Assembly: GCA_009992215.1 (NCBI GenBank)
Contig: JAACWB010000007.1
Location: 1 to 57,811 of the forward strand
DNA: 57,811 nt
Direction of reading: 5' to 3'
Source of the DNA: an archaeon
GTDB lineage: Archaea; Nanobdellota; Nanobdellia; Pacearchaeales; GW2011-AR1
Of the stretch, positions 199 through 52,347 are shown piece by piece. The translations under genes and the position numbers were made by a program. How positions within the stretch are numbered: position 1 is the stretch's first letter; every line of letters starts with the position of its first letter. The notes below the pieces were generated by a model. The model searched no databases. It was not told the DNA's origin and saw only the letters and a list, made by a program, of their open reading frames with translations.

Positions 199-302
199 TT
201 AGCAAAAGATATGAAACTCCTCTTATCTTCCATCCACAACCCCGGCCGCCACCCCAAAGACAAGAGATTATTAATGGGAAAACATGAAATGATCTTTTCT
301 AA
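199..302. repeat. C-tract-loop hairpin element, copy 1
   Basis: CTCTTATCTT/AAGACAAGAG and TTAGCAAAAGAT/ATCTTTTCTAA stems around CCATCCACAACCCCGGCCGCCACCCC. Confidence 0.6.
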
Positions 303-343
303 TTTAAGATTAAATTATTAAATCTTTTTTGTTTTACATTTTC

Positions 344-1204
344 ATGGCACGAAGAAAAGATTTGAATTATGATGAAGTTATTGAAAAAATAATGGAAAAG
401 AAGGAATTTAGGAAACTTCCACTTTCAGATGTGAAATTAGTTTATTCACAATTTGAAGATAGAGAAGATTTAATTTTGGATGAAAAAATTAAAGAAACTC
501 GTGATTTGCTTCGTAAAATGTATACGGCTTTTGTTAGTGAAAAGTTACTTAATGTTAAAGACAAAGAACCTATTTGGTTTTTACAAAAGCATATTTCTAC
601 AAAGGAGAGATTAAATCATTATATTGATGTTTACAAAAAATGTTTGGATGGATTAGATGAAGTTCATCATGAAGAATTAATTGAACCAAATTATATTTCG
701 GCAAAAGATAAATTAACAAAGGGAGGAATAATTAATGTATATGACCTTGGTTCTGGAATTAATGGTTTTAGTTATGATTATTTTTTAGAAGCTGGTTTTA
801 ATGTAAATTATTTTGGTTTTGAAGCAGTTGGGCAACTTGTGGATTTACAAAACAATTATTTTTTAAAAGAAAAAAAGAATGCAGATTGTTTTCATGGGAG
901 TTTATTTGATTTAGAAATTGTTAAAAGTTTTTTGAAAAAAGGAAAAGGGAAAAAAGTTGTTTTTTTGTTCAAGACTCTTGACAGTTTGGAAATGTTAAAA
1001 AGGAATTATTCCAAGGAACTATTAAAAGAAATTATGCCTTTCGTTGACAGGGTTGTAGTTAGTTGGGCGACAAAAAGTTTAGTTAGTAAAAAGAATTTTT
1101 ATGCCGAGAGAAAGTGGCTTAAGGATTTTATTAAAGAAAATTATAAGATAATTGATGAATTTCAAGAAGGAATAGAAAATTATTTAATTTTTGAAAATAA
1201 ATAA
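344..1204 (+). CDS. FmrO/Sgm/ArmA-like 16S rRNA (guanine-N7) methyltransferase homolog
   Basis: Motifs HISTKERL, DLGSGINGFS (SAM binding), LFKTLDSLE and VVSWATKSL match the HxSTxERL, DxxCGxNP, LxKxLPxLE and VSFPTKSL pattern of the FmrO family. ATG at 344 preferred over TTG at 329. Confidence 0.65.
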   Translation: MARRKDLNYDEVIEKIMEKKEFRKLPLSDVKLVYSQFEDREDLILDEKIKETRDLLRKMYTAFVSEKLLNVKDKEPIWFLQKHISTKERLNHYIDVYKKCLDGLDEVHHEELIEPNYISAKDKLTKGGIINVYDLGSGINGFSYDYFLEAGFNVNYFGFEAVGQLVDLQNNYFLKEKKNADCFHGSLFDLEIVKSFLKKGKGKKVVFLFKTLDSLEMLKRNYSKELLKEIMPFVDRVVVSWATKSLVSKKNFYAERKWLKDFIKENYKIIDEFQEGIENYLIFENK

Positions 1205-1243
1205 TTTCTTAACATTTATTAATCAATCTTTTCTATAATAATT

Positions 1244-1465
1244 ATGGCGGAAGAATTAGGGGAATTTAACGATCAATCTTACAAAGATAAACAAAGAGAA
1301 CTTGCAGTGGAACAAGTAGCTTTTGAATATGGACAAAAAAAGGAAGAAGAGAAAGCTCCTGAATTAAAGCGAAAACAATCAATAAAAGAAAAGGTAATTA
1401 GTTGGGGAATTTTAGTTTTGGCTTTTTTATTTGTTTTATATTTGGGTTATAGACTTTTATTTTAG
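1244..1465 (+). CDS. small C-terminally anchored membrane protein
   Basis: Charged N-terminus, one C-terminal TM helix, TATA-like box upstream. Confidence 0.6.
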   Translation: MAEELGEFNDQSYKDKQRELAVEQVAFEYGQKKEEEKAPELKRKQSIKEKVISWGILVLAFLFVLYLGYRLLF

Positions 1466-1560
1466 TTGGTAGCTGGTAGTTAATGGGAAAATAAAATTTT
1501 TTTGTATAAATTAACCTTAATCTTTATATAATAATTTTATTTAGTATCTTTGAATAAAAG

Positions 1561-2775: not shown

Positions 2776-2837
2776 AAACATAAAATTAAATCTTTTTTTG
2801 AGGTTAATCTTAAAAAGTGAAATTGGTTTCTATTAAG

Positions 2838-3638
2838 ATGAAAATTATTAATATTCCGATTGTAAATGGTTTGTCTAAAACGAAAGGAGTTGAAGAAGCG
2901 CCAGCAGAAATTCTAGCCAGATTAGAATCTATTTATTCAAATGGGAAAGGAAATTTAGTTAATGTTAATAATTTGGAAGTTAGCAGTATTGGAATTAGTG
3001 GGGACTTAGAAAAAGATAATGAAAACATTTACAGACGAGCTTTTGAATTGTTTGGGAATGAGAAACTTTTATTTTTAGGAGGGGATCATTCTTTAAGTTA
3101 TCCGTTGACTAGGGCTTTTTTTGATTATTCAGAACATAATTCAAGAAAACCTTGTTTGATTGTTTTTGATGCACATCCTGATTGCATGGAACCGGTTGAC
3201 AGAAAAATTCCAACACATGAAGAGTGGTTAAAGGCTTTAATTGAAGACGGGTTCCCAACAAAAAATATTCTTTTGGTTGGTTCCAGAAATGCAGATGTTT
3301 CAGAATTAAATTATTTGAAAGAAAAAAAGATAAAACAATTTACGGTTGAACAATTAATGTTTGAATTGGAAACGAAAACTGATGCTATTATGGAATTTGG
3401 TTACGGAAAAGATGTTTATGTTTCAATTGATATTGACGCTGTTGACCCTGCATATGCGCCCGGAACGGGTTATTGCGAAGTGGGAGGAATAAGTTCACAA
3501 CAATTTTTGTATATTGTAAAGAGACTTTCTAAAATGAAAAATTTGAAAGCTGTTGATTTAGTTGAAATTAATCCAAAAAAAGATGTTAATGGAATGACTC
3601 TTCAATTGGGTGCAAAGATAGTTAGTGAATTTTTGTAA
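2838..3638 (+). CDS. arginase/agmatinase family ureohydrolase
   Basis: GGDHS, DAHPD, SIDIDAVDP and APGTG motifs. Confidence 0.9.
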   Translation: MKIINIPIVNGLSKTKGVEEAPAEILARLESIYSNGKGNLVNVNNLEVSSIGISGDLEKDNENIYRRAFELFGNEKLLFLGGDHSLSYPLTRAFFDYSEHNSRKPCLIVFDAHPDCMEPVDRKIPTHEEWLKALIEDGFPTKNILLVGSRNADVSELNYLKEKKIKQFTVEQLMFELETKTDAIMEFGYGKDVYVSIDIDAVDPAYAPGTGYCEVGGISSQQFLYIVKRLSKMKNLKAVDLVEINPKKDVNGMTLQLGAKIVSEFL

Positions 3639-3639: not shown

Positions 3640-3709
3640 GAAAATAAATTTTTGTAAGAGATATCTAGGGCAGCCCACCCAACCCGCCCAATACTAAAAA
3701 TTTATTTTC
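3640..3709. repeat. C-tract-loop hairpin element, copy 2
   Basis: GAAAATAAATTTTT/AAAAATTTATTTTC stem around CCCACCCAACCCGCCC. Confidence 0.8.
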
Positions 3710-9715: not shown

Positions 9716-9781
9716 GAATTTAGAAAAGTTTTCTTTGTTATAAAAGTTAGTTGCTATTTGTTAGTAGAGGGTTTTTATTTC

Positions 9782-9852
9782 AAAATTTCTTCTTTAGTAA
9801 TATTAAAGCCCCTCCCAATATGGAATGCCCGCCCTAATTACGAAGAAATTTT
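9782..9852. repeat. C-tract-loop hairpin element, copy 3
   Basis: AAAATTTCTTC/GAAGAAATTTT stem around CCCCTCCC...CCCGCCC-TAATTAC. Confidence 0.8.
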
Positions 9853-9898
9853 ATGATTTAATTAAGAAGAAGAAAAAGTATTATGTTGTTATGTTATT

Positions 9899-14746: not shown

Positions 14747-14796
14747 AATTATTTTAGTGATTAATAGTTTAAAATGTTTTAGGAGTTTGTAAGCTG

Positions 14797-14862
14797 GAAA
14801 ATAAATTTTGCGATTGATATTAAAAACATCCCGCCCACCCACCCAATACAAAAATTTATTTT
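14797..14862. repeat. C-tract-loop hairpin element, copy 4
   Basis: GAAAATAAATTTT/AAAATTTATTTTC stem around CCCGCCCACCCACCC. Confidence 0.8.
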
Positions 14863-14946
14863 CTAAAAAATTAAGTAATTCGTAGTAAACAATGGAAGAT
14901 ATCTCTTTACAACAATTAATATAAAGTATTTTTCTTTATTTTTTAT

Positions 14947-28225: not shown

Positions 28226-28226
28226 A

Positions 28227-29620: not shown

Positions 29621-29705
29621 TTTAAAAAAATTTTTTCATTATTTCACGCGCCCGAATCGCAAAGTCGCGTCCCGCCACACCCTAATTACGAAAAAATTTT
29701 CTAAA
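29621..29705. repeat. C-tract-loop hairpin element, copy 5
   Basis: AAAATTTTTTC/GAAAAAATTTT stem around CGCGCCCGAAT...CGCGTCCCGCCACACCC-TAATTAC. Confidence 0.8.
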
Positions 29706-32887: not shown

Positions 32888-33337
32888 ATGTTATTTTGGA
32901 CACATTTACTTGTTGGGTTGTTTGGAATTTTAGTTTATCTTCCATATTCAGAGAATAAAGTTATCTTTTTTGTTGTTGCATTGGCTGCGTCGGTTTTAGC
33001 GGATATCGATTCACCAACTTCAAAACTTGGACGGAAGTTTTCTTCGAGAGTTTTATTTGCATTTAGTAAACACAGGGGATTTTTACATAGTTTAACTTTT
33101 ATGTTTCTTGTTTATTTAATTTTGAAATTTACTCTTCCTATTTTTGCTTTTCCTTTCTTATTTGGATATTCAATTCATTTATTTTTGGATATTTTTACAG
33201 TTCAAGGAATTAAATTGTTTTGGCCCTTCAAATTCAGGTTAAGAGGTTTTGTTAAAAGTGGAAAATTAATTGAATTATTTTTAATGATTTTATTTTTGAT
33301 TTTAGATTGTTTTATGTTCGTTGTTAGAATTATTTAA
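32888..33337 (+). CDS. membrane-bound metal-dependent hydrolase (YdjM family)
   Basis: TH, ADID, HRGFLHS, HLFLD. Confidence 0.88.
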   Translation: MLFWTHLLVGLFGILVYLPYSENKVIFFVVALAASVLADIDSPTSKLGRKFSSRVLFAFSKHRGFLHSLTFMFLVYLILKFTLPIFAFPFLFGYSIHLFLDIFTVQGIKLFWPFKFRLRGFVKSGKLIELFLMILFLILDCFMFVVRII

Positions 33338-33350
33338 TATATTTATTATA

Positions 33351-33420
33351 TTCGCGCCCGAATGATTTGAAACGCGCCCACCACCCCCTCCTCCGCCCAA
33401 TACCAAAATTTATTTTTTTA
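33351..33420. repeat. C-tract-loop element, copy 6
   Basis: TTCGCGCCCGAATG...CGCGCCCACCACCCCCTCCTCCGCCC-AATACCAAAATTTATTTT; left stem weak. Confidence 0.75.
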
Positions 33421-37110: not shown

Positions 37111-37214
37111 TTTTGTTTCTTTTTGGTTATTTTAAAATGTTGAAACGACGAACACGTACCGAAGTACGCGTTGTCGATTGAAATTTTAAACTAATTCAAA
37201 AATAATTCAAAATT
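37109..37214 (+). repeat. 106-bp hairpin element, copy 4 (GTAC-core subtype)
   Basis: Conserved ends; core CGAC-G-AAC-ACGTAC-CGAA-GTACGC-GTT-GTCG; overlaps the stop codon. Confidence 0.9.
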
Positions 37215-37227
37215 ATATAAATTAATT

Positions 37228-37371: not shown

Positions 37372-37419
37372 ATGTTTTGTAATATAAATTTATTTAAATT
37401 AGTTTTGTATTAACATTTA

Positions 37420-37827: not shown

Positions 37828-37837
37828 TTTTTTAAGA

Positions 37838-38245: not shown

Positions 38246-38288
38246 TTTTCCTTTTTAAGGATTTATGTTCCTTTTAGAGGGAAGAAAA

Positions 38289-38990: not shown

Positions 38991-39057
38991 ATAAAATTAA
39001 GAGGAGATGTGGTTTTAAAGGTTACGGGTTTAGTTATTTTTAATTTTACAATTAAAA

Positions 39058-40407: not shown

Positions 40408-40432
40408 TTGTAAAGAATTTAGAAGAAACTAG

Positions 40433-40774
40433 TTAACGTGTTTTGATACCAAAATATTTTTTCAATGTTCTAAGTTGTGAGAAAACTCTGTCTTTTTCTC
40501 TTTTTGCTTTTTTATCTTGGGCATTCTTTTCAGAATGTGCTTTAATCTTTGCTAGTTTTTCTTCTACGTTTTTTAAATCTGGGTTCACGTATTTGTCGCC
40601 TAAGATTTTTGATATTTTCCCTTCATATTCTGAGGGGTGAATTCCTTCATCTTTTAATCTTTGACCGATTTTTTCTGCTGTTAAGCCTTCAGTAGCTAGG
40701 GCTAGAACTTTTTTTTCATATTCTTTTTGAGTTAATTTTTGTTTTTCTACTTTCACTTTTTTTATTTTTGCCAT
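40433..40774 (-). CDS. rps15: 30S ribosomal protein uS15 (shortened)
   Basis: EGLTAEKIG..LKDEG, PDL, H...N..DKKAKR, L.KY; adjacent to the DHH gene. Confidence 0.85.
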   Translation of the reverse strand: MAKIKKVKVEKQKLTQKEYEKKVLALATEGLTAEKIGQRLKDEGIHPSEYEGKISKILGDKYVNPDLKNVEEKLAKIKAHSEKNAQDKKAKREKDRVFSQLRTLKKYFGIKTR

Positions 40775-40896
40775 GAATATTTGTGTAAATCTTCTTTTTT
40801 AAAGCTTTGCGTTTATTTTTTAGTGATTTTCTTGTTCATTTATTCTCAGTAATTACATGAAGTAAGATATATAAACTAGAAAATATATATTGGAGT

Positions 40897-41697
40897 ATGG
40901 GTAAAGTAGTGGGTGTGTTAAGCCTAAAAGGGGGTGTAGGAAAAACTTCTAGTGTTGTTTCCATTGGAGCTTCACTTGCTAAAATGGGAAAGAAAGTTTT
41001 ACTAGTTGATGGAAATTTATCTGCACCAAATTTGGGACTTCATTTAGATGTGATTACTCCAGTTAAAACACTTCATCATGTTTTGGCAGGCGAAGAAAAA
41101 ATTGATGATGTAATTTATGAAACTCATGGGCTTGATATTGTTCCTGCTTCACTATTTCATAATTTAGAAGTTAATCCCTTGAAATTAAAAAATAAAATTA
41201 GAGAATTAAAAGATAAGTACGACGTTATTTTAATTGATTCATCTCCTTCTTTAGATGATGAAACTCTTGGAGTTATGATGGCTTCTGATGAACTTTTGGT
41301 TGTGACAACACCTGACTTTTCAACTCTCTCTATGACGTTAAAATCAGTTAAATCTGCCAAAGAAAAAGGGACACCAATTACTGGTTTAATTTTAAACAAA
41401 GTTCATAATAAAAATTTTGAACTTAGCCTTGAAGACATTGAAAAGACAAGTGATGTTCCAGTGATGGCTGTGATTCCTCATGATATTAATATAATTCGTT
41501 CTCAAGCGCAATTTGTCCCTTCAACATATATCAAACCAAATTCTCAAAGTAATGTAGAATATAACAAATTAGCTCATTTAATTGTTGGAGAAAAATATAA
41601 TCCTCCTAAAAATATTTATAATATTCTTAACAGATTTTCAAATCCTCAAAGACAAGAAATCAACAGACAAATTTTTTATAATTCTATTTTTAATTAG
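40897..41697 (+). CDS. minD: MinD/ParA family ATPase
   Basis: KGGVGKTS, DGNLSAPNLGLHL, IDSSP. Confidence 0.9.
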   Translation: MGKVVGVLSLKGGVGKTSSVVSIGASLAKMGKKVLLVDGNLSAPNLGLHLDVITPVKTLHHVLAGEEKIDDVIYETHGLDIVPASLFHNLEVNPLKLKNKIRELKDKYDVILIDSSPSLDDETLGVMMASDELLVVTTPDFSTLSMTLKSVKSAKEKGTPITGLILNKVHNKNFELSLEDIEKTSDVPVMAVIPHDINIIRSQAQFVPSTYIKPNSQSNVEYNKLAHLIVGEKYNPPKNIYNILNRFSNPQRQEINRQIFYNSIFN

Positions 41698-41791
41698 GAA
41701 ACTAGTTTCAAAAAAAGACTGGCCTTTTAGGTTTGAAGTAAAATTAATTTTACCTAAAAGGCAGGAAATTAACCATATTTTTTTAACTGAG

Positions 41792-42028
41792 TTATGCAGC
41801 CAAGCTTAAGTAATTAAGATTTACCAAAGCTGTTTCTTTATTTTCTTGTCTTACCATTTGTGGTAAGTGAACCAATGCTTGTTCCCCAAAGATTCCAAGT
41901 ACAAATACTTCTATTTTTGAAGTTCTTGCATTTGGTTTTAGTTCTGTTCCAGGTAAAACTGGTTTGTAAACTAAAAGCTCGTTAAAAAAAGTTGTCTCGT
42001 ATGGGCAATAGAGATGTGCTTTTTTCAT
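41792..42028 (-). CDS. hypothetical small protein
   Basis: 78-aa ORF with ATG and upstream TATA-like box. Confidence 0.5.
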   Translation of the reverse strand: MKKAHLYCPYETTFFNELLVYKPVLPGTELKPNARTSKIEVFVLGIFGEQALVHLPQMVRQENKETALVNLNYLSLAA

Positions 42029-42274
42029 AATAAATCATGTGATGAAATCTTTATATTAAATTCCGAGTATTTTTTGATAGTAATCTTAGTTAGGAGTTTT
42101 TAGTGAAACAGTCTTGTTTCTGTTTCTCGGTGAAAGTGAAACAGGTTTTTTATGAGTAATAAATTGTATTGTTCATTATTAGGGTGAAAGAATAAGTTTT
42201 ATGCGAACTTTAATTATTTTTGAGAAAGGCAAATCTTATAAATTAAAATTCTTAGATTATTATATTGTTTTACT

Positions 42275-42405
42275 AGCCCCGTAGTCAGTTCCCAAGGATA
42301 CAGGACTTTGAATTTACTCTCACTCTTGAAATGTTCTTTAAATTCGCTTTACTCATTTATTTGAAATTTCAAAAGATGTTCGCTGTGACCTCACGATTCG
42401 AATCC
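42275..42405 (+). pseudogene. degenerate, interrupted duplicate of tRNA-Gln
   Basis: 5' half AGCCCCGTAGTC...CAGGACTTTGAAT, about 70-nt insert, then CTGTGACC..GATTCGAATCCG; 3' acceptor strand missing. Confidence 0.75.
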
Positions 42406-42469
42406 GTTTATTTTTTGCAAATGACAAATCTTATAAATTAAAATTCTTAGATTATTATATTGTTTTACT

Positions 42470-42542
42470 AGCCCCGTAGTCTAGTGGTCAAGGATACAGG
42501 ACTTTGAATCCTGTGACCCCGGTTCGAATCCGGGCGGGGCTA
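42470..42542 (+). tRNA. tRNA-Gln(TTG)
   Basis: AGCCCCG/CGGGGCT acceptor stem (archaeal A1-U72), CAGGA-CTTTGAA-TCCTG anticodon arm, GGTTCGAATCC; no encoded CCA. Confidence 0.97.
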
Positions 42543-42651
42543 TTTTTGTGGGGTCACGTGACCACAACTCAAGCCCGCAACATTTTTTATTTTTTCATTT
42601 TGAATTTATTTGAAATGTTGCAAACTTTCGGGTTTGAAAATCCGAGCGGAG

Positions 42652-43026
42652 CTACTTTTTTGTTAGAATTTCTAAATTACTTGGGCGCACAGATTTTAAT
42701 GAATTATCATTTCTATTAATATTTATTTTTGTTTTATATGGTTTGAATTCTTCTCCTTTTGTTTCTGTGAGGAGATCTTTTCCTGGTTCAATTTTAATGT
42801 TATATTGGCCTTCACCTAAATTATAATTTATTCTTCCCCAACAATCTCCATTATATACAATTGTGTCTTTTTTGCTATAGAAAGTCGCTTTAGGAAATGA
42901 AGGAAAATAGAATTCTTCTGGCTCAATTATTATTGTTCCTTTTGTTTTTGTTTCGAGGGGTTTTGAAGAGAATAAGAACGGGGACAAAGACAATGCAATT
43001 ATTGCAATACCTCTTTTTATATTCAT
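42652..43026 (-). CDS. hypothetical secreted protein
   Basis: Signal peptide KRGIAIIALSLSPFLF. Confidence 0.55.
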   Translation of the reverse strand: MNIKRGIAIIALSLSPFLFSSKPLETKTKGTIIIEPEEFYFPSFPKATFYSKKDTIVYNGDCWGRINYNLGEGQYNIKIEPGKDLLTETKGEEFKPYKTKININRNDNSLKSVRPSNLEILTKK

Positions 43027-43116
43027 TCAAATTTATGTATTTTTTTGTTTATAGTTTTCACCTATATATCTACATAGTTTGATAAATTTTATATAGTTTG
43101 AATATAATTTATATTT

Positions 43117-44055
43117 ATGAAAAAATATACTCGTAAATTACAATTTGTTGCTGGAAGCACTTATTCTATTTCACTCCCGAAGGAATGGGTGAAGGATTTT
43201 AATTTAAAACCACAACAGCTTCTTAATTTGGTTGAAATGGAAACTGGGCTTCTTATTTCTCCAGAGAATGTTTCTTTGTCTTCAAATGAAATTAGTTTCT
43301 CTTTGGATGAGATGAATTCTGGGATTAATCAAATATTAATTTCTTCTTATTATTATGGTTTTGAAAAAATAAATTTTTATTCAAAATCAGAAATTTCTCC
43401 TGAAGCGAAGAGAGACATAAGAAATATTATCAGTGAACTTCCTGGGGCAGAAATTATTTATGAAGACAAAAAGAAATTGTCAATTCAAATTATGTTTGAA
43501 AATTTGAATGTTGATATCTTTCAGTTATTGTATAGAGTTTATTTGTTAGTTGAATCTTCAATTGAAAATATTGTTTCTTTATTTGATTGGGAAGAAATTG
43601 ATTTGAATGAAAAAGAGGTTGATCGGCTTTATCATTTGGCTACAAAAATTATTACTTATTCGATAAAAAATCGTGGGGTTTTGATTTCTTCAAAGATTGA
43701 GAATCCTCTTTTTTTGCCTTCTCTTTTTTTAATTAGTAAGAGGCTTGAAAATATTGAAGACAATTTGAGTGAAATTGCAAAGTTGGTAAAAACAAATCAA
43801 ATTGTTTTGAATGAGTCAAAAAAAATTTTGCCTGAATTAAAAAATGAACTTGAGCGAGCAATTTTGTATTTGATTGGTAAAAGAAATAAGCATTTCATTA
43901 AAATGGAAAATTCCATGAAAGAAAGAATAAAGGAAGATATGAATAAAATAAAAAATGATTTGGTGAAACAAAATGTACGAGATATTTTAAGATACATTGT
44001 TAATATACAAGAGGATGTGATTACCCTTGGATTTTATGAGAAGTTGAAGAATTAA
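43117..44055 (+). CDS. archaeal phosphate uptake regulator (AbrB and PhoU domains)
   Basis: RKLQFVAGSTYSISLPKEWV, EVDRLY, LENIED. Confidence 0.88.
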   Translation: MKKYTRKLQFVAGSTYSISLPKEWVKDFNLKPQQLLNLVEMETGLLISPENVSLSSNEISFSLDEMNSGINQILISSYYYGFEKINFYSKSEISPEAKRDIRNIISELPGAEIIYEDKKKLSIQIMFENLNVDIFQLLYRVYLLVESSIENIVSLFDWEEIDLNEKEVDRLYHLATKIITYSIKNRGVLISSKIENPLFLPSLFLISKRLENIEDNLSEIAKLVKTNQIVLNESKKILPELKNELERAILYLIGKRNKHFIKMENSMKERIKEDMNKIKNDLVKQNVRDILRYIVNIQEDVITLGFYEKLKN

Positions 44056-44660
44056 TGTTTGTATCTTCCACGTTTTTCTATGGCTTTCATTTTATCAAAA
44101 ACTTTCTCTGCTTCTTTTGGATTTATACTTCTGTAACCAATTTCAAATTCTTTGAATAGTGTTTGCCAATTTTCAAAGTGTTTTGCTTCGAGCGCTTGTT
44201 TAAGTAAATGAATGTCAACTCCTTTGTCTTCGTATTTTCCGTTGAAGTATCCGAGTCCAAAATCAATTAAAAATATTTTTTTATCTTTTAATATCATGTT
44301 TGAAGTTGTTAAGTCTCCATGAATTATTCCTTTTTCGTGTAATTTTGCAATTGATTTACCTAATTCAAACATTATCTCTTCTTGTTTTTTTTGTTCGAAT
44401 TTATTTAATGAAGTGGAGAGTTTTTGTCCGTCAATAAAGGGCATGATTATTTTGTCAACTTCTTTTTGTTTTTCAGGTAGCGGGACATTAACAATTTCAC
44501 TTGCTTCTGTTAGAAGTTTTGTTTCTGACTTTGTTCTTTTTTTTATTATTGATTTGTCTAGTTCTTTATGTCTATAACCTTTAGAAATTCTTTCTTTTAT
44601 GACTTTGTCATTCTCTAAATAAATTACTGCTTCTGCACCAGAAGATATTTGTTTTTTCAT
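44052..44660 (-). CDS. bud32: KEOPS kinase/ATPase Bud32
   Basis: GAEA, K.RISKGYRH..LD, HGDLTTSN, IDFGL, RGRY. Confidence 0.95.
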   Translation of the reverse strand: MKKQISSGAEAVIYLENDKVIKERISKGYRHKELDKSIIKKRTKSETKLLTEASEIVNVPLPEKQKEVDKIIMPFIDGQKLSTSLNKFEQKKQEEIMFELGKSIAKLHEKGIIHGDLTTSNMILKDKKIFLIDFGLGYFNGKYEDKGVDIHLLKQALEAKHFENWQTLFKEFEIGYRSINPKEAEKVFDKMKAIEKRGRYKH

Positions 44661-45067
44661 TTTATTTTATATTTTCCGTCTCCTGCAAATAGTAGGATTG
44701 CTAGGCTTGTTATTACACCCAAATCTGTTGTTAAACAATATGGGCAAGTTGCATGGATTACAAAAAATTGTAGGTATAGAAAATATACTCCGAGGCATGA
44801 ACCCAGTGTTAAACCTAAAGTTAGAAATTGTTTTTTTCTTTTTGTTGGTTTTTTTATGTGTGAAAAATTAATTATGAAAAGTGCAACGAATGCTGCTAGT
44901 CCAAGGTGCGCGTTTTTCATTCCGAATACTTCATCATAATTTGAGGCTTGTACTTTGTAACAACCAGTTTCTTCTTGTCCGCATGCTTTTTCAATTGGAA
45001 TGAACGACAAAATTGCTGACGCTATTAGTGCTAGTCCAATAAAAAATAAAATTGATTTATATTTCAT
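44657..45067 (-). CDS. vitamin K epoxide reductase (VKOR) family protein
   Basis: C.....GC..V..S.Y, CPYC, TM helices. Confidence 0.88.
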   Translation of the reverse strand: MKYKSILFFIGLALIASAILSFIPIEKACGQEETGCYKVQASNYDEVFGMKNAHLGLAAFVALFIINFSHIKKPTKRKKQFLTLGLTLGSCLGVYFLYLQFFVIHATCPYCLTTDLGVITSLAILLFAGDGKYKIK

Positions 45068-45135
45068 AAAATTAGTTAAGAAAAAAGGGATTAAAAAGAT
45101 TAGGGTTTGTTTGTCGGTGTTGAAAAATTCGAAAA

Positions 45136-45202
45136 TTTCTTCGTTATTATTCGTGCCCGAATGTTTTGTGACACGTCCCCCCGCGCCCTAATTACGAAGA
45201 AA
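45136..45202. repeat. C-tract-loop hairpin element, copy 7
   Basis: TTTCTTCGTTATTA/TAATTACGAAGAAA stem around TTCGTGCCCGAATG...CCCCCCGCGCCC. Confidence 0.8.
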
Positions 45203-45293
45203 GGTTCTAGTTAAATTATCTTCGGATTATAGTTTCAACAAAGTAGCTTGTTAATTTCAAAAGATATTTAATCCATTCCTTGTTTTGTTTTTT

Positions 45294-45626
45294 ATGAGCC
45301 CAATGGAAAAAGAACTTGAAGGAATTTTGTCTTCTTTTGAAGCTATGCAAAAAAGCGAGAAGTTAGCAATTGGTAGCATGGATGAGAGAATAAAAGAATT
45401 TATTCAAAAGATTTTGAATGGTTTGATTAAATATCATTTGGATGAAGAGAAGTATTTTTCTTTTATTGAAATTTTAGATAAATTTATTGATGAAATGAGA
45501 TATAATGACAATGGAACTGACTGGATGGTTTGGTGTAATATTGATTTTGGAAAACTGAGTTTAATTAGTTCAGGGGTTGTTGAAGACATGAAAGTTTTGG
45601 AAGAGATTAAGGAGTATTATTGTTAA
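45294..45626 (+). CDS. hypothetical protein
   Basis: Acidic ORF, no motif recognised. Confidence 0.5.
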   Translation: MSPMEKELEGILSSFEAMQKSEKLAIGSMDERIKEFIQKILNGLIKYHLDEEKYFSFIEILDKFIDEMRYNDNGTDWMVWCNIDFGKLSLISSGVVEDMKVLEEIKEYYC

Positions 45627-46354
45627 TATTCGTAATTTCCTAAATCTACTACAATACTTTTTCCTTTATTTTTTTCTGAACCAAAATAGTCAATATTAAA
45701 TTCTCCTTTGCCTATTGATGTTATAACAAATTCATGAACGGCTTCTTTAAAAAATAAATTTGCTTCTTGTACAATTAAATCTTGTGGGCTTGGTCCTGAA
45801 AAGGGTGTTTCATCTATTTGCGAAGCGTGAAGATGAAATTCAGTTAAATATTCTTCTGGGTTTATGTTTTCTGGAAGAAGGTAAGAACCATCATTTTCTT
45901 TTTTTCTAATCAATTCACTTTTAAGAAGATTAAATTTAATTTTATTTTTGTTTAACGTTGTTATTCCTCCGTGTTCAGAATATTTATCGTTAATGTCATC
46001 AATAATAATTTTTCCTATTTCTTTTCTGAATTCTTTTTCTTTTAAGTTTTCTAGTGTTAAGTAAATTATTTTTAGTTGATTTTCTGTTAATTCATATATT
46101 TGTGAATAACTTTCATCTCTTGGTTTTGTTTCTAAATAGATACGGCTTTTTCTGTAAGAATGATTTTTTTCTTTTAGAGTTTCATATACTTCATCAATTA
46201 AATTTTTTCCAAGAAAATAATCTTTTGTGTTTTTTTCCAAATATTCGTTAGTTACTTTTGAAGGGAAATATTTTTCTAAAAGAGAACTGTCTTTTGTTTT
46301 CATTGGCATAAATAGGAGACTTCCAGTAAGAAGTAAAGTGTAGAGTGTTTTCAT
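45623..46354 (-). CDS. secreted protein with JAB/MPN-like metal-binding motif
   Basis: Signal peptide; EHGG...FHLHA...GPSPQD. Confidence 0.55.
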   Translation of the reverse strand: MKTLYTLLLTGSLLFMPMKTKDSSLLEKYFPSKVTNEYLEKNTKDYFLGKNLIDEVYETLKEKNHSYRKSRIYLETKPRDESYSQIYELTENQLKIIYLTLENLKEKEFRKEIGKIIIDDINDKYSEHGGITTLNKNKIKFNLLKSELIRKKENDGSYLLPENINPEEYLTEFHLHASQIDETPFSGPSPQDLIVQEANLFFKEAVHEFVITSIGKGEFNIDYFGSEKNKGKSIVVDLGNYEY

Positions 46355-46375
46355 TTTTTGAGAAGATAAAATGGG

Positions 46376-46462
46376 TATTTATTTATTGTTGTTTCGCGCC
46401 CGAATGCTTTGAGACGCGCCCACCAACCCCCTCCAACCACCCAGTTGGGAGTGAGTTAAATA
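46376..46462. repeat. C-tract-loop element, copy 8
   Basis: TTCGCGCCCGAATG...CGCGCCCACCAACCCCCTCCAACCACCC. Confidence 0.75.
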
Positions 46463-46499
46463 GGCTATTTTTTGTTTGGGAAGAATTGTAAATTTAATC

Positions 46500-47423
46500 T
46501 TAATCATACATCTTCTTTGTTGGCATAATTTCTTCTATTACATCAAAAGCAGTTTTAATTTGAGTTTCTGCTTCTTTTTTTAATTTTATCATTTTGTCTA
46601 ATTCTGTTGGGTGAGCTACATCATTTCTATCTATTTTTATGGATTGTATTTTAAAATAATTTTTATCTGAAATAATTTTTTGATTTTTTAATAGCCCTAT
46701 TTTATTTTCAAATTTCATCTCGAGTATGGATTCTTTTGTATTTAATATTTTTTTATTTTGCACTAAAATCATTAATAAGTCTGTACAGATTTTTTCAAGT
46801 AATCTTCCTGAAAGAAATACAGAAAGTTCTTCATAACCCAATCCAAAAAGATTTACAATTTCTATCCAATAAATTATATAGTCGGATGAACTCAGTTTTT
46901 TATATTTCAAAAATTTCCTATTTTTTTCATTAATTTTTTCATTAATTTCTTGTAAGGCAAGCGATGTTTTTTGGACACTGAAATATGTTTTTAATCTTTG
47001 GTGTTCTATTTCTTTTTTTATCTCGCAACCTTCTTTTTCTATTTTCTCTTTTCTTTTTTTGAGGTATTTTATAAAACTCCCTTCAACTTTTATTAATTCT
47101 TTTTCTTTTTTATATTCAAAAATTTCAATAATTTGTATTACTTTCTTTTTTATTAAAGGAATTTGATTGAAGTTATATGAATCTTTAAATGTTTTTAAAT
47201 TTTGATTAAATTTATTTATCAATATGTTAATTTTTTCTACCTTTATTTTTATTTTTTCTTTTGATTCTTTTTTAATCTTTAAAAAATCTTTTTTATTTTC
47301 TTGTGGTTCAGATAATTCATGTCCAAGGTTATGAATTATCTCAAAAAGGCTATTAATTTCTATAAAAATTATTTGTTGGTTTTGTACTAAATTGTAAAAA
47401 GGTATAGCATTTATTCCAATCAT
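46500..47423 (-). CDS. coiled-coil protein with C-terminal HEPN/DUF4145-like domain
   Basis: GRLLE...RNDVAHP (RxxxxH). Confidence 0.55.
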   Translation of the reverse strand: MIGINAIPFYNLVQNQQIIFIEINSLFEIIHNLGHELSEPQENKKDFLKIKKESKEKIKIKVEKINILINKFNQNLKTFKDSYNFNQIPLIKKKVIQIIEIFEYKKEKELIKVEGSFIKYLKKRKEKIEKEGCEIKKEIEHQRLKTYFSVQKTSLALQEINEKINEKNRKFLKYKKLSSSDYIIYWIEIVNLFGLGYEELSVFLSGRLLEKICTDLLMILVQNKKILNTKESILEMKFENKIGLLKNQKIISDKNYFKIQSIKIDRNDVAHPTELDKMIKLKKEAETQIKTAFDVIEEIMPTKKMYD

Positions 47424-47424
47424 T

Positions 47425-48801
47425 TTAAAACCTCATTTTTCCTCGCCCTCCACGAGCGAATTTTTTCATGAGTTTTTCCATTTGTTTTGGGTTCATCCCT
47501 TCAGACATATCCATTCCTTGTGTTCCTTTTACCATTCCAGCTAGCATGTCATATTGTTTTAGGAGTGCACGAAGTTCAGAGTTGTTAACTCCTGCACCTT
47601 TTGCAATTCTTCCAATTCTTGTTGTTTCTTTTTTTATTAATTCAGGGTTTTCTCTTTCTTCTTTTGTCATTGAGTTTACTAAGTGTTCCCATTTTGCAAC
47701 TTTTTTTTGTTGCTCGTCTAGTTGCGCTTTGTCAATTTTTGCTTTACCAAGTCCTGGAACCATTGAGAGCATTTTGTCCATTCCTCCAAGAGAATTCATT
47801 GATTTGATTTGTTCAACAACGTCAGTTAAAGTTATTTTTCCTTCTTGCAGTTTTTCTTGAATTTTTTGTTGTTGTTTTTCGTCAGTCACCGAACGTATTT
47901 TTTCCATTAAACTTTCCAAGTCGCCCATTCCAAGAAGACGGGAAAGGAATTGTTCTGGGTTGAATTTTTCTATGTCGTTAATTTTTTCTCCTGTTGTTAT
48001 GAAATAAACTCCCGAGTTTGTTTCTGCACATGCTGTTAGGGCTCCCCCTCCTTTTGCAGTTGAGTCCATTCTGGAAATTATTACTCCAGTTATATTTAGT
48101 GAATTAGAAAATTTCTCTGCTTGATTTTTTGCAGCTTGCCCAATGTCAGCTGGCATTACAAGAATTGTTTTGTCTGGTTTTATTTTTTTATTTAGTGTTT
48201 CAATTTCTTCAACTAATTCAGAATCCAAGTCGTGACGACCAGCTGTGTCGACAATTACTAAATCATATTTTTCTAGCTTTGGTTCAATTTGTTTCCAGTT
48301 GTTTATTGCTGAATCATTTTCAGGAACAGTATAAACGTTTAAGTTGTGTTCTTTACCAAGTTGTTCAAGTTGTTCTTTTGCGGCTGGTCTCCAAACGTCA
48401 AGTCCTACAAGTGCAACTTTTTTTCCTCGCTTTTGAAAGTAGTTTCCAAGTTTTGCAGTTGTTGTTGTTTTACCTGCAGCGTAAAGTCCACACATCATAA
48501 TTCTTGTTTGGCCTTTTTCTTTTGGGATTAATTCTTTTTTTTCTCCAAGAATGTGGATTAGTTCATCGTGTAAAATTTTAATTAAATGCTCTTTTTTTTC
48601 TATTCCAGTAATTTTTTCGTCAAATGCGGCTTTACGAATTTTTTCTGATAATTCTTTTACTAAAGGTATTGAAACATCGGCTTCAATTAAGGCACGTTGA
48701 AGTTCACGAACGATTGTATCAACTAGATTTTTGTCTAGAAAGATTGCATTACTTATCTTGTCTGTTGCTTTTTTTATTGCGTTTCCTAATTTTTCTAACA
48801 T
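47425..48801 (-). CDS. srp54: signal recognition particle protein SRP54
   Basis: ALIEADV, GLYAAGKTTT, DTAGRH, Met-rich M domain. Confidence 0.96.
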   Translation of the reverse strand: MLEKLGNAIKKATDKISNAIFLDKNLVDTIVRELQRALIEADVSIPLVKELSEKIRKAAFDEKITGIEKKEHLIKILHDELIHILGEKKELIPKEKGQTRIMMCGLYAAGKTTTTAKLGNYFQKRGKKVALVGLDVWRPAAKEQLEQLGKEHNLNVYTVPENDSAINNWKQIEPKLEKYDLVIVDTAGRHDLDSELVEEIETLNKKIKPDKTILVMPADIGQAAKNQAEKFSNSLNITGVIISRMDSTAKGGGALTACAETNSGVYFITTGEKINDIEKFNPEQFLSRLLGMGDLESLMEKIRSVTDEKQQQKIQEKLQEGKITLTDVVEQIKSMNSLGGMDKMLSMVPGLGKAKIDKAQLDEQQKKVAKWEHLVNSMTKEERENPELIKKETTRIGRIAKGAGVNNSELRALLKQYDMLAGMVKGTQGMDMSEGMNPKQMEKLMKKFARGGRGKMRF

Positions 48802-49816: not shown

Positions 49817-49927
49817 TTTTGTTTTGAGAGAGATTAGTCATTAATTGTTTATTCTATTTCGATAATTTTTTTGTTCTATCTAGTTTTATATATAAATAAT
49901 TATAAATGTTAATCTTATTTTTTATTT

Positions 49928-50167
49928 ATGGAAGGCCAGTATCGTGGATATAAAATTTCAGTTGAGCGAGTAAAATCACCAAAAGAATCTATTCGGGAAT
50001 GGATTAATTTTTCTGTGTTTAGAATTAGTGATGGTTATTTGACTTTTTCGGGATATGACCCTGTAGGAAAAGAGGAAAAAGTTAAAGATGTTTACAAAAG
50101 ACTTAAAGGATCTATAGATAATTTGATTACTGAAAATAAAAATCGATTTTGTTTTGAGGGGGATTAG
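49928..50167 (+). CDS. hypothetical small protein
   Basis: 79 aa, ATG with upstream TATA-like box. Confidence 0.5.
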   Translation: MEGQYRGYKISVERVKSPKESIREWINFSVFRISDGYLTFSGYDPVGKEEKVKDVYKRLKGSIDNLITENKNRFCFEGD

Positions 50168-50267
50168 TTTCTTATTTTATTAGAAGTTGGATTTTTCAAA
50201 TGAGTTTACTTTATTCTAATGATTTCAATTAGTGAAATTATGTAAATTATGTTTTATATTATCTTTT

Positions 50268-51005
50268 TTAAAATCTTAACTTTTTTTTCAAATTTAAATC
50301 AATTTTTTCTTTTATCCTGTCTGGTAGGGCATTAAATAAATCTAATTCTTTTTTGTTTTTTTGAGGATACATTTTATTTAATTTAATTTGTAAATTTTTT
50401 CTCATTTTTTCAATACCTTTTTTAATTATTTTTTTGTTTTCACTTAAAATTATGGGATTTAACAAAAGATTGGTTAGTTGAACATCAGGATAAAATTCAT
50501 GATCTTTTTCAATAAAAGCTGAAAATTCTATTGTCTTTCCGGAGTTTATTTTTTTATAAACTTTTTTTAATTTTATTTCTTTTCCAGAAATGTTTCTAAA
50601 TGTTCGGTACTTAGATACTTTTGGGTAATTTTTGCTAATTTCATTTCTTCTAAAAAGAATATTCTTTTCTGTTAGATTTATAACATTGTTGAATGCTTTT
50701 ATATCCCAGATATGTAATCCAATTTCGAATTCTTCTTCATAAACTACACTAAATATATTGAATTTTGTTTTGATTGCATCATTTATAACTTTTGATTCAT
50801 ATGTTTGATTTATTCTTTTGTAAAATTCTTTAAAATTCATTTTTTTGAACTTTGTAATAAGAAGAATATCTAAATCTGATTTTTTTGTAACTTTTTTTGA
50901 AGAATAAGCAACAGAACCAATTAAAACTATTCCTATACATAAATCTTTTAATTTTGTGTTTAATTCTTTTGCTTTTTTTCTTCTTAATAAGTATTCTTTA
51001 TTCAT
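50268..51005 (-). CDS. Pol-beta-superfamily nucleotidyltransferase domain protein
   Basis: IVLIGSVAY......SDLDILL. Confidence 0.75.
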   Translation of the reverse strand: MNKEYLLRRKKAKELNTKLKDLCIGIVLIGSVAYSSKKVTKKSDLDILLITKFKKMNFKEFYKRINQTYESKVINDAIKTKFNIFSVVYEEEFEIGLHIWDIKAFNNVINLTEKNILFRRNEISKNYPKVSKYRTFRNISGKEIKLKKVYKKINSGKTIEFSAFIEKDHEFYPDVQLTNLLLNPIILSENKKIIKKGIEKMRKNLQIKLNKMYPQKNKKELDLFNALPDRIKEKIDLNLKKKLRF

Positions 51006-51006
51006 T

Positions 51007-52347
51007 TTAATCCAATCCTAACTTCTCGATGAATTTTTCTTTGTTGAATGGCTCGATATCTTCGTAACCTTGACCTGTTCCTAAGTAGATTATTGGTTTT
51101 TTTGTTATGTATCCAACGGAAAGGGCTGTTCCGCCTTTTTCGTCGATGTCAGCTTTACTTAAGAAAATTCCATCAATTCCAATTGTTTCATTGAATGCTT
51201 TTACTTGATCAACTGCATCGTTTCCTGTTATTGATTCACCAACAAAAATTGTTCTGTCTGGTTTACATACACGTTTTATTTTTTCCATTTCACGAAGAAG
51301 GTTTGTTGCTGTATGAATTCTTCCAGCTGTGTCAATTAAAACTACTTTTATGTTATTTTTTTTGGCGTATTGTATTGCGTCAAATCCAACGGAAGCAGGG
51401 TCACTTCCATAATCATGTGAAACTACTTTCACGTCTAAATTTTCTCCGTGTTTTTTTAGTTGTTCAACTGCTGCTGCACGAAATGTGTCGCCTGCCGCCA
51501 TAACAGAAGTTATTCCTTTATCTTTTAACATATGAGCAAACTTTGCAATTTGTGTTGTTTTTCCAACCCCATTAATTCCACAAAAAATCATAACATAAGG
51601 TTCTTCTTTATTTTTGATTTCTTCAATTATATCAAACGGTTCGATTAACACACTTTCAATAATTTCTTTTAGTGAATTGTTAATTGTTTCTTCAATTTCT
51701 TTTTTACTAAGTTCGATTCCAACAATTTTTTCTTTTAACTCTTCAATTATTTTTTCAGCTACTTCAAGAGCAACATTATTTTCTAAAAGAATCATTTCTA
51801 GGTCTTCTGAGTATTCTCTAAATTCTTCTTCAGTTATTGTTTTTTTAGATGAAACAATTTTTTTGAAAAAAGACTGTCTTTCTTTTGGTTGAATTTCCTC
51901 CGCCTCCCCCTGAATTGTGGTTTTTTCCCGCCCACCCGAGGCGTCGATTTTAATGGAGAGATTTTCTTCCTCTGGTTTAATTTCTTCTTTTTTTTGGATT
52001 TCTTCTTCAGTTTCAATTTCCTCTAGTGTTTCTTCTTTTTTAGAAAATAATTTTTTTAGAAATCCTTTTTTTTCCTTTCCTTCTTCCTTTAATTCTTCAT
52101 CTTCAACTTCTGTTACAAAGTCTGACTTTTCTTCAATCTCTTCTTCAGTGGTCTTAATTTCTTCAGCGATTTCTTTCTTTACTTTTTTTGATTTTTCTTT
52201 TGGCGCTTTAGCTTCTTTTTTCTTTTTTTCTTTAGTTGGTTTTTCTTTTACTTCTTCAACAATTTCTTCAATTTCTTCTTCGTTTTCTTCTACTTCTGAA
52301 ATCTTTTTTGTCCATTCTTTTAATTTGTTTTTTAGTTTTCCAAACAT
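51007..52347 (-). CDS. ftsY: SRP receptor FtsY with long acidic N-terminal domain
   Basis: GINGVGKTTQIAK, DTFRAAAVEQL, DTAGR, KGGTALS. Confidence 0.96.
   Translation of the reverse strand: MFGKLKNKLKEWTKKISEVEENEEEIEEIVEEVKEKPTKEKKKKEAKAPKEKSKKVKKEIAEEIKTTEEEIEEKSDFVTEVEDEELKEEGKEKKGFLKKLFSKKEETLEEIETEEEIQKKEEIKPEEENLSIKIDASGGREKTTIQGEAEEIQPKERQSFFKKIVSSKKTITEEEFREYSEDLEMILLENNVALEVAEKIIEELKEKIVGIELSKKEIEETINNSLKEIIESVLIEPFDIIEEIKNKEEPYVMIFCGINGVGKTTQIAKFAHMLKDKGITSVMAAGDTFRAAAVEQLKKHGENLDVKVVSHDYGSDPASVGFDAIQYAKKNNIKVVLIDTAGRIHTATNLLREMEKIKRVCKPDRTIFVGESITGNDAVDQVKAFNETIGIDGIFLSKADIDEKGGTALSVGYITKKPIIYLGTGQGYEDIEPFNKEKFIEKLGLD
51894..51961. repeat. C-tract-loop hairpin element, copy 9, inside ftsY
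   Basis: CGCCTC/GAGGCG stem around CCCC...CCCGCCCACCC; a GC island in an AT-rich coding stretch. Confidence 0.6.

Follow-up and report, generated by a model that had tools for sequence, protein, structure and literature searches.

A uniformly oriented family of hairpin repeats with C-tract interiors in the genome of a Pacearchaeales archaeon

Reduced genomes commonly contain small palindromic repeats, and for most of these it is not known how they spread. Rickettsia palindromic elements (RPE) are short hairpin repeats that lie between genes and also in frame within housekeeping genes. We know of no demonstration that archaeal mobile DNA is coupled to the replication fork. The hairpins of REP/BIME sequences with RAYT and of IS200/IS605 elements are described as being recognized as structures on single-stranded DNA (PMC3333891, PMC6006769, PMC5027513); one of these sources also describes IS200/IS605 elements as inserting in an orientation set by the lagging-strand template (PMC5027513). 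In the archaeal Methanomicrobiaceae, recurrent potential G-quadruplexes of near-identical sequence, each with four G runs, are interspersed in intergenic DNA and can fold as either hairpin or G4; that study describes a GC-rich hairpin with an adjacent C-rich tract, found on both strands equally, and reports no origin-related pattern (PMC8044849). Integron attC sites are described as imperfect hairpins that conserve structure over sequence and recombine as a folded single strand, with an orientation to replication that matters (PMC5371416, PMC3458562).

We analyzed a window of 57,811 nt from an archaeon of the order Pacearchaeales (contig JAACWB010000007.1, positions 1 to 57,811, assembly GCA_009992215.1), in which a preliminary description had reported nine GC islands, and all nine are present where they were placed. 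Eight are intergenic copies of a repeat superfamily that numbers ~36 members across the 889-kb genome (24 T1, 5 T2, 4 T3, and 3 odd copies); the 24 T1 copies were found with a covariance model, R1, and the T2, T3, and odd copies were added by motif scans. The islands are as follows.

220..266, + strand: odd C-rich island with a CCCCGGCCGCCACCCC core; weak enclosing stem, DNA fold z -0.83, not significant
3640..3709, + strand: T2 copy; 15-bp AT-rich stem around four contiguous CCC tracts; DNA fold z -5.8 (+), -6.2 (-)
9781..9853, + strand: T1b copy, C tracts 2+2; R1 match E 1e-6; DNA fold z -2.6 / -3.1
14795..14865, + strand: T2 copy; canonical G4 motif on the minus strand, 14830-14844; DNA fold z -2.9
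29626..29701, + strand: T1 copy; R1 match E 3.6e-13; flanked by convergent genes
33337..33413, + strand: T3 copy; R1 E 0.006; no significant enclosing stem (z -0.98)
45131..45207, + strand: T1 copy; R1 match E 6.9e-15; DNA fold z -3.0
46373..46465, + strand: T3 copy; R1 E 0.32; shared 5' module; no significant enclosing stem (z +0.52)
51895..51958, no strand assigned: non-member C-rich stretch in FtsY (gene 51007..52347, SRP54 and SRP54_N domains); z +0.11

The ninth island (51920) was rejected as a family member, as it lies inside the FtsY coding sequence and has no enclosing stem (z +0.11). The superfamily membership of 220..266 is uncertain; it has a relative in the copy at G000:C16:35403-35468. 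The T2 copy at 3640..3709, with a canonical G4 motif on its minus strand (3674-3689), directly follows an arginase-family gene (2817..3638, +). The T1b copy at 9781..9853 has minus-strand genes on both sides and the T2 copy at 14795..14865 is flanked by divergent genes. In the T3 copy upstream of radA (33337..33413), a T1-like 5' module (CGCGCCCGAATG...ACGCGCCC) is followed by an extended C-rich run, and the 3' end resembles that of T2. The T1 copy at 45131..45207 borders a 2.3-kb variable insert of three genes that G007 and G009 do not have, and the T3 copy at 46373..46465 lies within it. An inverted repeat had been proposed around most islands; this was borne out at five of the nine (3640, 9781, 14795, 29626, and 45131; z -1.9 to -6.2), and the islands at 240, 33337, 46373, and 51920 show no significant enclosing stem. 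The sub-motifs said to be shared among the islands recur far beyond chance: CGYGCCCGAAT has four matches and CCCTAATTACGAA three, all on the + strand, against none in 100 shuffles, and CCCAATAC...AAAATTTATTTT has two exact copies and one with an extra base.

The T1 unit is a hairpin of ~76 nt with an AT-rich stem and a sequence-conserved interior rich in C tracts (three or four CCC tracts); comparison of the DNA ligase genes suggests that a tail of ~14 nt also belongs to it. In an alignment of 34 copies, 23 from this genome and 11 from relatives, 91.3% of T1 stem cells are paired, compared with 68.1% in shuffles (0/500 as high) and 37 to 65% in slid controls, and 11 of the 13 stem pairs have changed on both sides. 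The copies in G021 have the same interior and a very different stem (TTTTGGCAA/TTGCCAAAA). The earlier observation that stem sequence differs between copies while pairing is kept holds on these 34 copies. Hairpin folding is backed by DNA-fold z scores of -1.9 to -6.2 for T1 and T2; T3 and odd copies have no such support. The balance of G.T (19) and A.C (12) mismatches in stem cells, which bears on which strand folds, is not significant (p = 0.28). An AATTAAG-like word follows ~30/35 copies at a distance of 5 to 12 nt, AT-rich TATA-like words stand beside many copies, and the spacing between copies is irregular.

Potential for G-quadruplex folding was assessed with ViennaRNA using RNA G4 parameters and is a prediction only. 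The two textbook motifs noted at 3674 and 14830 are real and are two of only four canonical motifs (four G3+ runs, loops 1-7) in the 889-kb genome, both strands counted, all four of them in T2 copies. A G4/i-motif description fits part of the family and not the rest: 4/36 copies are canonical, 27/36 have at least four G3 tracts, and 25/36 satisfy the G4 rule once loops of up to 21 nt are allowed. As in the Methanomicrobiaceae repeats as described, T2-type loops (1, 2-5, 1) occur and orientation is unrelated to neighboring genes (PMC8044849); unlike what is described there, an AT-rich covarying stem here encloses the tracts, polarity is strict, and copies are also found within genes.

All copies place their C-rich side on the DNA strand that is richer in G, regardless of how the genes around them are oriented, and such uniform orientation of all copies found is unusual for hairpin repeats of this kind. 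On the eight contigs with a computable strand skew r, copies are in the + orientation where r is +0.09 to +0.16 and in the - orientation where r is about -0.11; co-oriented gene bases on these contigs make up only 55 to 74% (97% on C20). In relatives, 9/9 copies with a computable r agree in polarity, and the skew sign of the copy-bearing region is conserved in 7/8 syntenic loci, including those of species with no R1 match (G003 and G020). It is debated whether strand skews in archaea are a reflection of replication (bioRxiv 10.1101/2023.11.15.567178; PMC12999951). The copies are confined to ~251 kb of contigs (~28% of the assembly), with none in the other ~630-638 kb, which include contigs of comparable skew (C31, C54, C13, and C15). 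Synteny with G015 orders contigs as C31-C4-C16-C26-C9-C14-C19-C29-C7, an order that rests on this one relative, itself with almost no strand skew. Next to the orc1 gene (C7:3679-4920) is an AT-rich spacer of 498 nt that contains ORB-like inverted words. On this ordering, most copy-bearing contigs probably form one chromosome arm from an orc1-adjacent origin, so that the C-rich strand would lie on leading-strand sequence, that is, on the lagging-strand template. A fork-coupled inserter would be expected to fill both replichores with flipped orientation; ~630 kb of this genome is without copies.

The preliminary description had all nine islands carrying C on the + strand regardless of flanking genes, and inferred that this polarity follows the replichore rather than transcription. 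The first statement applies to the repeat copies, island 51920 being FtsY coding sequence and not a member. The second finds support: orientation is unrelated to local transcription and matches both the strand compositional asymmetry and the fork direction inferred from the orc1-adjacent origin. This agreement with skew and fork direction is seen on one arm; because the other ~630 kb holds no copy, a flip at ori/ter could not show, and because the copies probably all lie on a single arm, contigs with uniform orientation are not independent tests.

The copies are many, dispersed, non-coding, and share one short sequence, as in RPE-like or MITE-like families. They occur in intergenic spaces whatever the relative orientation of the flanking genes, and 5 of the 24 T1 copies are in frame within genes (DNA ligase, MnmA, TYW3, and a PLP decarboxylase in two alleles). 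The reading frames of these host genes are open and their Pfam matches full, and the DNA ligase is 30 codons longer than its G007 ortholog. In-gene copies occur on either coding strand and keep the chromosome-level orientation even where they run antisense to their host. Comparison of orthologous sites found site 29626 empty in G020 and G009 (an intergenic space of 137 nt here versus ~0 nt there) and site 33337 empty in G009. Some insertions are old: G016 also has the copies in MnmA and TYW3. In one allele pair, a 57-nt difference is flanked by an AATTAGG direct repeat, and the "empty" allele retains one arm; the other comparisons are too diverged, and neither clean ends nor a target duplication or target word could be established. 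The copies are scattered among conserved syntenic housekeeping genes and not within segmental duplications. R1 matches were found in 5/22 congeners, at one to six copies each, in 0/18 genomes of other genera, and, weakly, in 2/145 genomes of an order-wide sample outside the genus; among 131 family genomes, the T2 core occurs in this one alone. Judged from these genomes, the repeat is lineage-specific and patchy within the genus.

In-frame gene copies, empty orthologous sites, and patchy distribution therefore point to a mobile hairpin repeat of the RPE/REP type, a REP-like element being one of the options first raised for the islands. Like RPE, it is a short non-coding hairpin, intergenic and also in frame in genes without breaking them, lineage-specific, and with no transposase of its own; unlike RPE, it has an archaeal host, a single chromosomal orientation, a stem that covaries around a C-tract interior, and some canonical G4 motifs. 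Like attC sites as described, it is an imperfect hairpin conserved in structure rather than sequence; unlike them, its alignment contains no GTTRRRY/RYYYAAC (R''/R') core sites, and its copies are dispersed among housekeeping genes with no cassette array and no adjacent integrase. No integrase was found beside the copies, and the two tyrosine recombinases of the genome are on other contigs.

A search for HUH, RAYT, or IS200-type transposases came back empty: in this genome (80% complete), PF01797 (Y1, HUH) had no match at E up to 1, and no gene was found for TnpB, DDE_Tnp_1, IS110, rve, reverse transcriptase, or GIY-YIG. Y1 transposases are present in 5/22 congeners, of which only G001 also has an R1 match, and G009, with an R1 match, shows only a sub-threshold Y1 fragment. 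The flanks of the five congener Y1 genes, read by eye, contain other hairpins, unlike the repeat family. The family thus differs from REP-RAYT and IS200/IS605 systems in that no Y1/HUH gene was found in its genome, the end hairpins of congener Y1 elements are unrelated to it, no conserved cleavage tetranucleotide was found in the repeat, and its copies lie on one arm only.

We consider it reasonably probable that the islands belong to a lineage-specific hairpin-forming repeat that is non-coding, is of the RPE/REP/MITE kind, and owes its polarity to fork-linked insertion. Since the loop is conserved in sequence and the stem only as pairing, the active form would probably be a folded single strand that an enzyme specific for structure recognizes. 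New copies would then arise or insert on the template of the lagging strand as the replication fork passes, in the manner of IS200/IS605 and REP elements; this would fix their orientation, and their spread would be mostly local. A possible alternative cause of the polarity is purging of those copies that place the G-rich, quadruplex-prone strand on the lagging-strand template.

An unlikely competitor to a fork-inserted mobile repeat is a polar DNA signal that has a function on the arm next to the origin, with the repeat domesticated or spread owing to that function; examples would be a Ter-like fork pause or trap, a translocase or SMC-type loading or orienting site, or a G4/hairpin barrier against head-on transcription. 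Such a signal would account for an orientation that is uniform in ~36/36 copies and independent of genes, for the restriction of copies to one arm beginning at the orc1-linked origin, and for C3 tracts that are kept across subfamilies of different layout (at least four in 27/36), and the family contains all four of the genome's canonical G4 motifs. Against it, 17/22 congeners have no copy and the rest one to six despite conserved regional strand skew, copies lie within coding sequences, as is typical of selfish spread, and spacing is irregular, with none on the other ~630 kb. The KOPS/Chi-like chromosome-wide signal once suggested for the islands is not supported by this distribution, with copies on ~28% of the assembly and the family missing in 17/22 congeners. 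KOPS, moreover, are a G-rich word on the leading strand, and here the strand bias is opposite, the leading strand bearing the C-rich side. As to the corresponding translocases, HerA/DUF87-type ATPases are present, a point in favor of a polar signal; there is no full FtsK match, the FtsK_SpoIIIE profile matching just 51/221 positions in two HerA-like proteins.

Less probable again is a family of small structured RNA genes. The sRNAs would be C-rich hairpins, each expressed from a promoter of its own and, like other highly expressed genes, co-oriented with replication, and they might base-pair with ribosome-binding regions rich in G. The combination of stem covariation and a conserved loop does resemble an RNA family, intergenic copies are independent of neighboring gene orientation, and TATA-like AT-rich words, including the AATTAAG-like word, flank many copies. 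The window copies, however, have no Rfam match at E up to 1 (only tRNA-Gln matched), the C strand shows no significant excess of G.U in the stem, and in-gene copies keep their chromosome-level orientation even antisense to the host. Further points against this reading, which we set aside, are that five copies lie within genes, on either coding strand, that copy sites show no conservation from one species to another, and that most congeners are without the family.

An ordinary double-strand MITE from a DDE-type insertion sequence, its uniform orientation an accident of local duplication, would explain a short, non-coding, multi-copy unit with an inverted repeat and regional clustering but is very improbable, since arms that vary and covary around a conserved interior are the reverse of transposase-bound terminal repeats, DDE, rve, and IS110 transposases were not found in this genome (80% complete), orientation-blind insertion would place ~36/36 copies the same way round with a probability of only ~1e-10, and the copies sit among conserved syntenic genes outside segmental duplications.

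For the fork-inserted hairpin repeat that we favor, ~36/36 copies in one orientation, a stem conserved only as pairing, and a conserved C-tract core together offer a practical starting point for studying how a single-strand mechanism linked to the fork might work in archaea. The family would also serve as an internal marker of fork direction in unculturable organisms, and its four T2 copies, as the sole canonical G4 motifs in a genome of 29% GC, offer a clean natural test for DPANN G4 biology. More speculatively, and in our estimate improbably, the hairpin may be copied or inserted on one fork template strand only, by an enzyme unrelated to known HUH transposases, with its quadruplex-prone core as a direction-dependent obstacle or signal; if this were true, the origin-proximal arm of a DPANN chromosome would be marked by ~36 one-way structures acting on fork or transcription traffic.

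The GC islands of the window belong to a real family of mobile repeat, the general kind of which is known. A scan of the window for GC-rich 30-mers recovered all nine islands, in a contig whose genes are archaeal housekeeping genes (RadA, aEF-1beta, aIF2alpha, SRP54, FtsY, GINS, and Hef-type ERCC4) and which is part of a genome (G000) of 889 kb in 56 contigs, with 29% GC and 80% completeness by marker genes. The preliminary description treated the nine as one family; this holds for eight of them, which are intergenic, but the ninth (51895-51958) lies within the FtsY gene and was excluded as stemless FtsY coding sequence. Two shared words, CGYGCCCGAAT (four times) and CCCTAATTACGAA (three times), occur well beyond chance and on the + strand every time, with zero matches to either in any of 100 dinucleotide shuffles. 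Separately, a GC-rich palindromic block (GTGGGGTCACGTGACCAC...) was seen at window 42545-42581, immediately 3' of tRNA-Gln (42469-42543).

Scanning the whole genome for clusters of C tracts and for the words common to several islands gave three related types, as follows.

T1, lower stem: about 13 bp, commonly GAAAATTTCTTCG / CGAAGAAATTTTC
T1, interior, enclosed by the lower stem: TTATT, CRCG(C/T)CC-GAAT-TTTTGAAA-CGCG(T)CCC-N-CCC-N-CCC, TAATT
T2: stem GGAAAATAAATTTTTG / CAAAAATTTATTTTC, enclosing four contiguous CCC tracts, then AATAC
T3: the 5' module of T1, then a long C-rich run

T3 includes a copy with a T2-like end, pointing to module exchange between types. A covariance model (R1) trained on 16 T1 copies and run against the whole genome found 24 T1 copies at E < 1e-3; counted together with 5 T2 copies, 4 T3 copies, and 3 odd C-rich islands, the family comes to about 36. 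A truncated composite copy was also recognized on a 1.5-kb contig, C38; in composite elements an unrelated second small hairpin is nested in a variant of T1 with 2+2 C tracts (T1b). Some copies are immediately preceded on the 5' side by tandem heptamers, which are (GCTGGAA)n in G000 and (GGCAGAA)n in a relative, G021.

G000:C14:759-883, composite copy with nested hairpin of about 50 nt
G000:C38:260-380, composite copy with nested hairpin of about 50 nt
G000:C20:~41170-41205, tandem heptamers
G021:C44 and C29, tandem heptamers

The stem of the repeat is conserved as pairing and its interior as sequence. In an alignment of 34 T1 copies (23 from G000 and 11 from relatives, with the composite at C14:759-883 left out), 91.3% of stem cells were paired, compared with 68.1% in shuffles (0/500 as high); the alignment was fitted to the covariance model, which favors pairing. 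Eleven of the 13 stem pairs have changed on both sides, pairing falls to 37-65% when the partner is slid, and the copies of G021 carry a wholly different stem around the same conserved interior. When folded as DNA, window copies of T1 and T2 do better than shuffles on either strand (z of -1.9 to -6.2), and no such advantage was found for the window T3 copies or the island at 240. Counting G.T (19) versus A.C (12) on fixed stem columns did not distinguish the folding strand (p = 0.28). As for an inner CGCG/CRCG stem and a K-turn, the commonest combination, CACG with CGCG (12/34 copies), is mismatched, and compensatory change occurs in 3 copies only. An AATTAAG-type AT-rich word lies 5 to 12 nt past the stem in about 30/35 copies, as counted by eye in the flanks.

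The loops had been described as G-quadruplex- or i-motif-like. When both strands of the whole genome were scanned for the canonical motif (four G3+ runs, loops of 1 to 7), only four were found, all of them T2 copies and two of them in the window; as a sequence rule the description fits these four copies, and it is overstated for the family as a whole. On the G-rich strand, at least four G3 tracts are present in 27/36 copies and three in 7/36; the fourth tract of T1 lies 17 to 20 nt off, and 25/36 copies qualify only with loops up to 21 nt. Since C3 tracts persist in three layouts, the tracts seem to matter to the repeat, and the core is, as judged from its sequence, quadruplex-prone and conserved.

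Comparison with relatives showed orthologous sites to be empty at 29626 (G020 and G009) and at 33337 (G009); at 29626, convergent genes abut in both relatives, with about 0 nt between them versus 137 nt in the window. The copies at 45131 and 46373 are located in a variable 2.3-kb insert (window 45068-47424) of three genes, one with DUF4145, between a VKOR-family gene and SRP54; the same position holds 57 to 60 nt in G007 and G009 and another gene in G003. T1 matches numbered 1 to 6 in each of 5/22 congeners and were found in 0/18 genomes of other genera; in a sample of 150 genomes of the order, 2 of the 145 outside the genus had weak matches. The T2 core was found in G000 only, among 131 genomes of the family. 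The MnmA and TYW3 copies are also present in G016, so that some insertions are old, and other insertions are species-specific.

Of the 24 T1 copies, five sit in frame in genuine coding sequences. The hosts are TYW3, MnmA, an ATP-dependent DNA ligase, and, as two alleles found where contigs end, a PLP-dependent decarboxylase. All five frames are open, with full Pfam matches across the insert; the coding strand is the G-rich strand of the repeat in four cases and the C-rich strand in the fifth. The DNA ligase of G007 has exactly 30 codons fewer at the position of the repeat, which suggests a unit made of the 76-nt hairpin and about 14 nt of tail. The decarboxylase gene terminates two contigs, as follows.

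G000:C9:20126-21208, decarboxylase gene at contig end
G000:C26:10797-11312, decarboxylase gene at contig end

Protein identity between these alleles is 78%, and 87% over the part preceding the insert. The difference between the two is a 57-nt repeat piece between AATTAGG direct repeats, and the "empty" allele retains one arm. The assembly probably broke here through strain heterogeneity. The filled/empty comparisons made defined neither clean ends nor a target duplication. In contigs of four DNA runs over window 28000-47900, the same strain spans the repeat sites, and no empty-site joint was found among the joints listed. Of 17 sequencing runs matching window 38000-47500, none was listed as RNA.

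The one-way orientation of the family is unusual and well supported. As first noticed in the window, orientation disregards the flanking genes: the C-rich strand is uniform within each contig and matches the sign of its skew, with every copy on the + strand in C4, C7, C9, C16, C19 (the window), C20, and C43 and on the - strand in C14, C26, and C29. To part strand skew from coding-strand skew, we averaged the GC skew of + strand genes with that of - strand genes; this mean (r) was +0.09 to +0.16 where copies are + and about -0.11 where they are - (C14 and C26). C29 and C43 have genes on one strand only, so the sign of whole-contig skew was compared instead, and it agrees with copy orientation. 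Only 55 to 74% of gene bases are co-oriented on copy-bearing contigs (97% on C20) and all four arrangements of flanking genes occur; the polarity is thus independent of transcription. In relatives, 9/9 copies with computable r obey the same rule (2 more have no computable r), and one copy-bearing region, G021:C44, is syntenic to C31 of G000, which has no copy. The skew sign of the window region is kept in 7/8 syntenic loci of relatives, including those of G003 and G020, both of which lack an R1 match, indicating that the skew belongs to the chromosome itself and is not produced by the repeats. Values of |r| of 0.09 to 0.16 are found on many G000 contigs, and the syntenic locus is strongly skewed in most congeners too; hardly any skew was seen in the near-complete G015 or on C37, C42, and C24 of G000.

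Contigs were ordered by synteny with one relative, G015 (8 contigs), itself nearly free of strand skew. Most copy-bearing contigs fall in the run C31-C4-C16-C26-C9-C14-C19-C29-C7, all co-oriented by skew, with the C16-C4 join backed by a 25-residue identical overlap at the contig ends. C20 (no G015 match) and C43 (two scattered matches) are unplaced; a C20-C14 join by a shared end gene was rejected, since that gene, a member of a paralog family, matches at 94%. One end of the run carries the following features.

C7:3181-3678, very AT-rich spacer of 498 nt from which the flanking genes diverge, with three ORB-like words (TTTCCATAAGAAAT) in inverted orientation
C7:3679-4920, the sole orc1/cdc6 gene of the genome, directly downstream of the spacer

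From these features the spacer is likely a replication origin. If so, forks would run along the copy-bearing arm, and the C-rich strand would be the leading-strand sequence, i.e., the lagging-strand template. The approximately 36 copies would then lie on one inferred arm of about 250 kb, all directed away from the likely origin; no copy was found on the remaining ~630 kb, the similar-skew contigs C54, C13, and C15 included. Because most of the copy-bearing contigs fall on one inferred arm, they are not independent tests of polarity, and the link to replication, which rests on that arm, is plausible.

An RNA gene family is unlikely, as copies lie in genes, orthologous sites are empty, distribution is patchy, and no Rfam family matches the repeat, the same observations that mark it as mobile. 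The preliminary description had offered a polar chromosome signal or a REP-like element; the mobile repeat stands, but patchiness and empty sites argue against a chromosome-wide signal. A search for HUH/RAYT/IS200 transposases gave no Y1 gene in G000 (80% complete), nor was any TnpB, DDE_Tnp_1, IS110, rve, reverse transcriptase, or GIY-YIG gene found there; its only two tyrosine recombinases are on contigs other than the window's. No recurrent neighboring gene that might be a mobilizer was found among 115 flanking proteins. Y1 transposases (IS200/IS605 type) occur in 5/22 congeners (G001:C74:170-751, G019:C1, G012:C24, G004:C13, and G013:C50), uncorrelated with the repeat, and were rejected as its partner since their flanking end hairpins are unlike the family. 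The G001 gene is 1.5 kb from the decarboxylase ortholog.

In DDE-type MITEs the terminal repeats are conserved in sequence; the loop/stem pattern of our repeat is, on this analysis, the reverse. Recognition of a folded single strand is used by REP/RAYT, IS200/IS605 ends, and attC sites, and a sequence-conserved loop on a pairing-only stem would be the signature of such a strand and of a structure-specific enzyme. For IS200/IS605 elements, both excision and insertion reportedly take place on the lagging-strand template, so that their orientation is linked to replication (PMC5027513). Three known kinds come nearest to the repeat. It can be likened to REP/IS200-IS605 derivatives in its hairpins, which would be recognized by structure, and in an orientation that may be linked to replication, and it shares in-frame insertion with Rickettsia-type palindromic elements. 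The recurrent G4 motifs of Methanomicrobiaceae are likewise interspersed and intergenic, but they are reported on both strands equally, with no pattern relative to the origin (PMC8044849), whereas the DPANN repeat is one-way. In agreement with the preliminary description, our literature search found no strand-polarized stem-plus-C-tract repeat described in DPANN archaea; the supplementary motif lists of the latter study (PMC8044849), outside its scope, might hold related motifs.

Alternatively, the polarity could come from selection against copies with the G-rich strand on the lagging-strand template, or the repeat may have been domesticated for a polar role on the arm next to the likely origin. 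The lack of transposase genes, the folding-strand count, and the lack of clean ends speak against a fork-coupled process. Given the loop/stem signature and the IS200/IS605 precedent, we nevertheless favor fork-coupled copying or insertion: the repeat would be recognized as a folded single strand by a structure-specific enzyme, copied or inserted as a single strand at the replication fork, and spread mostly locally.
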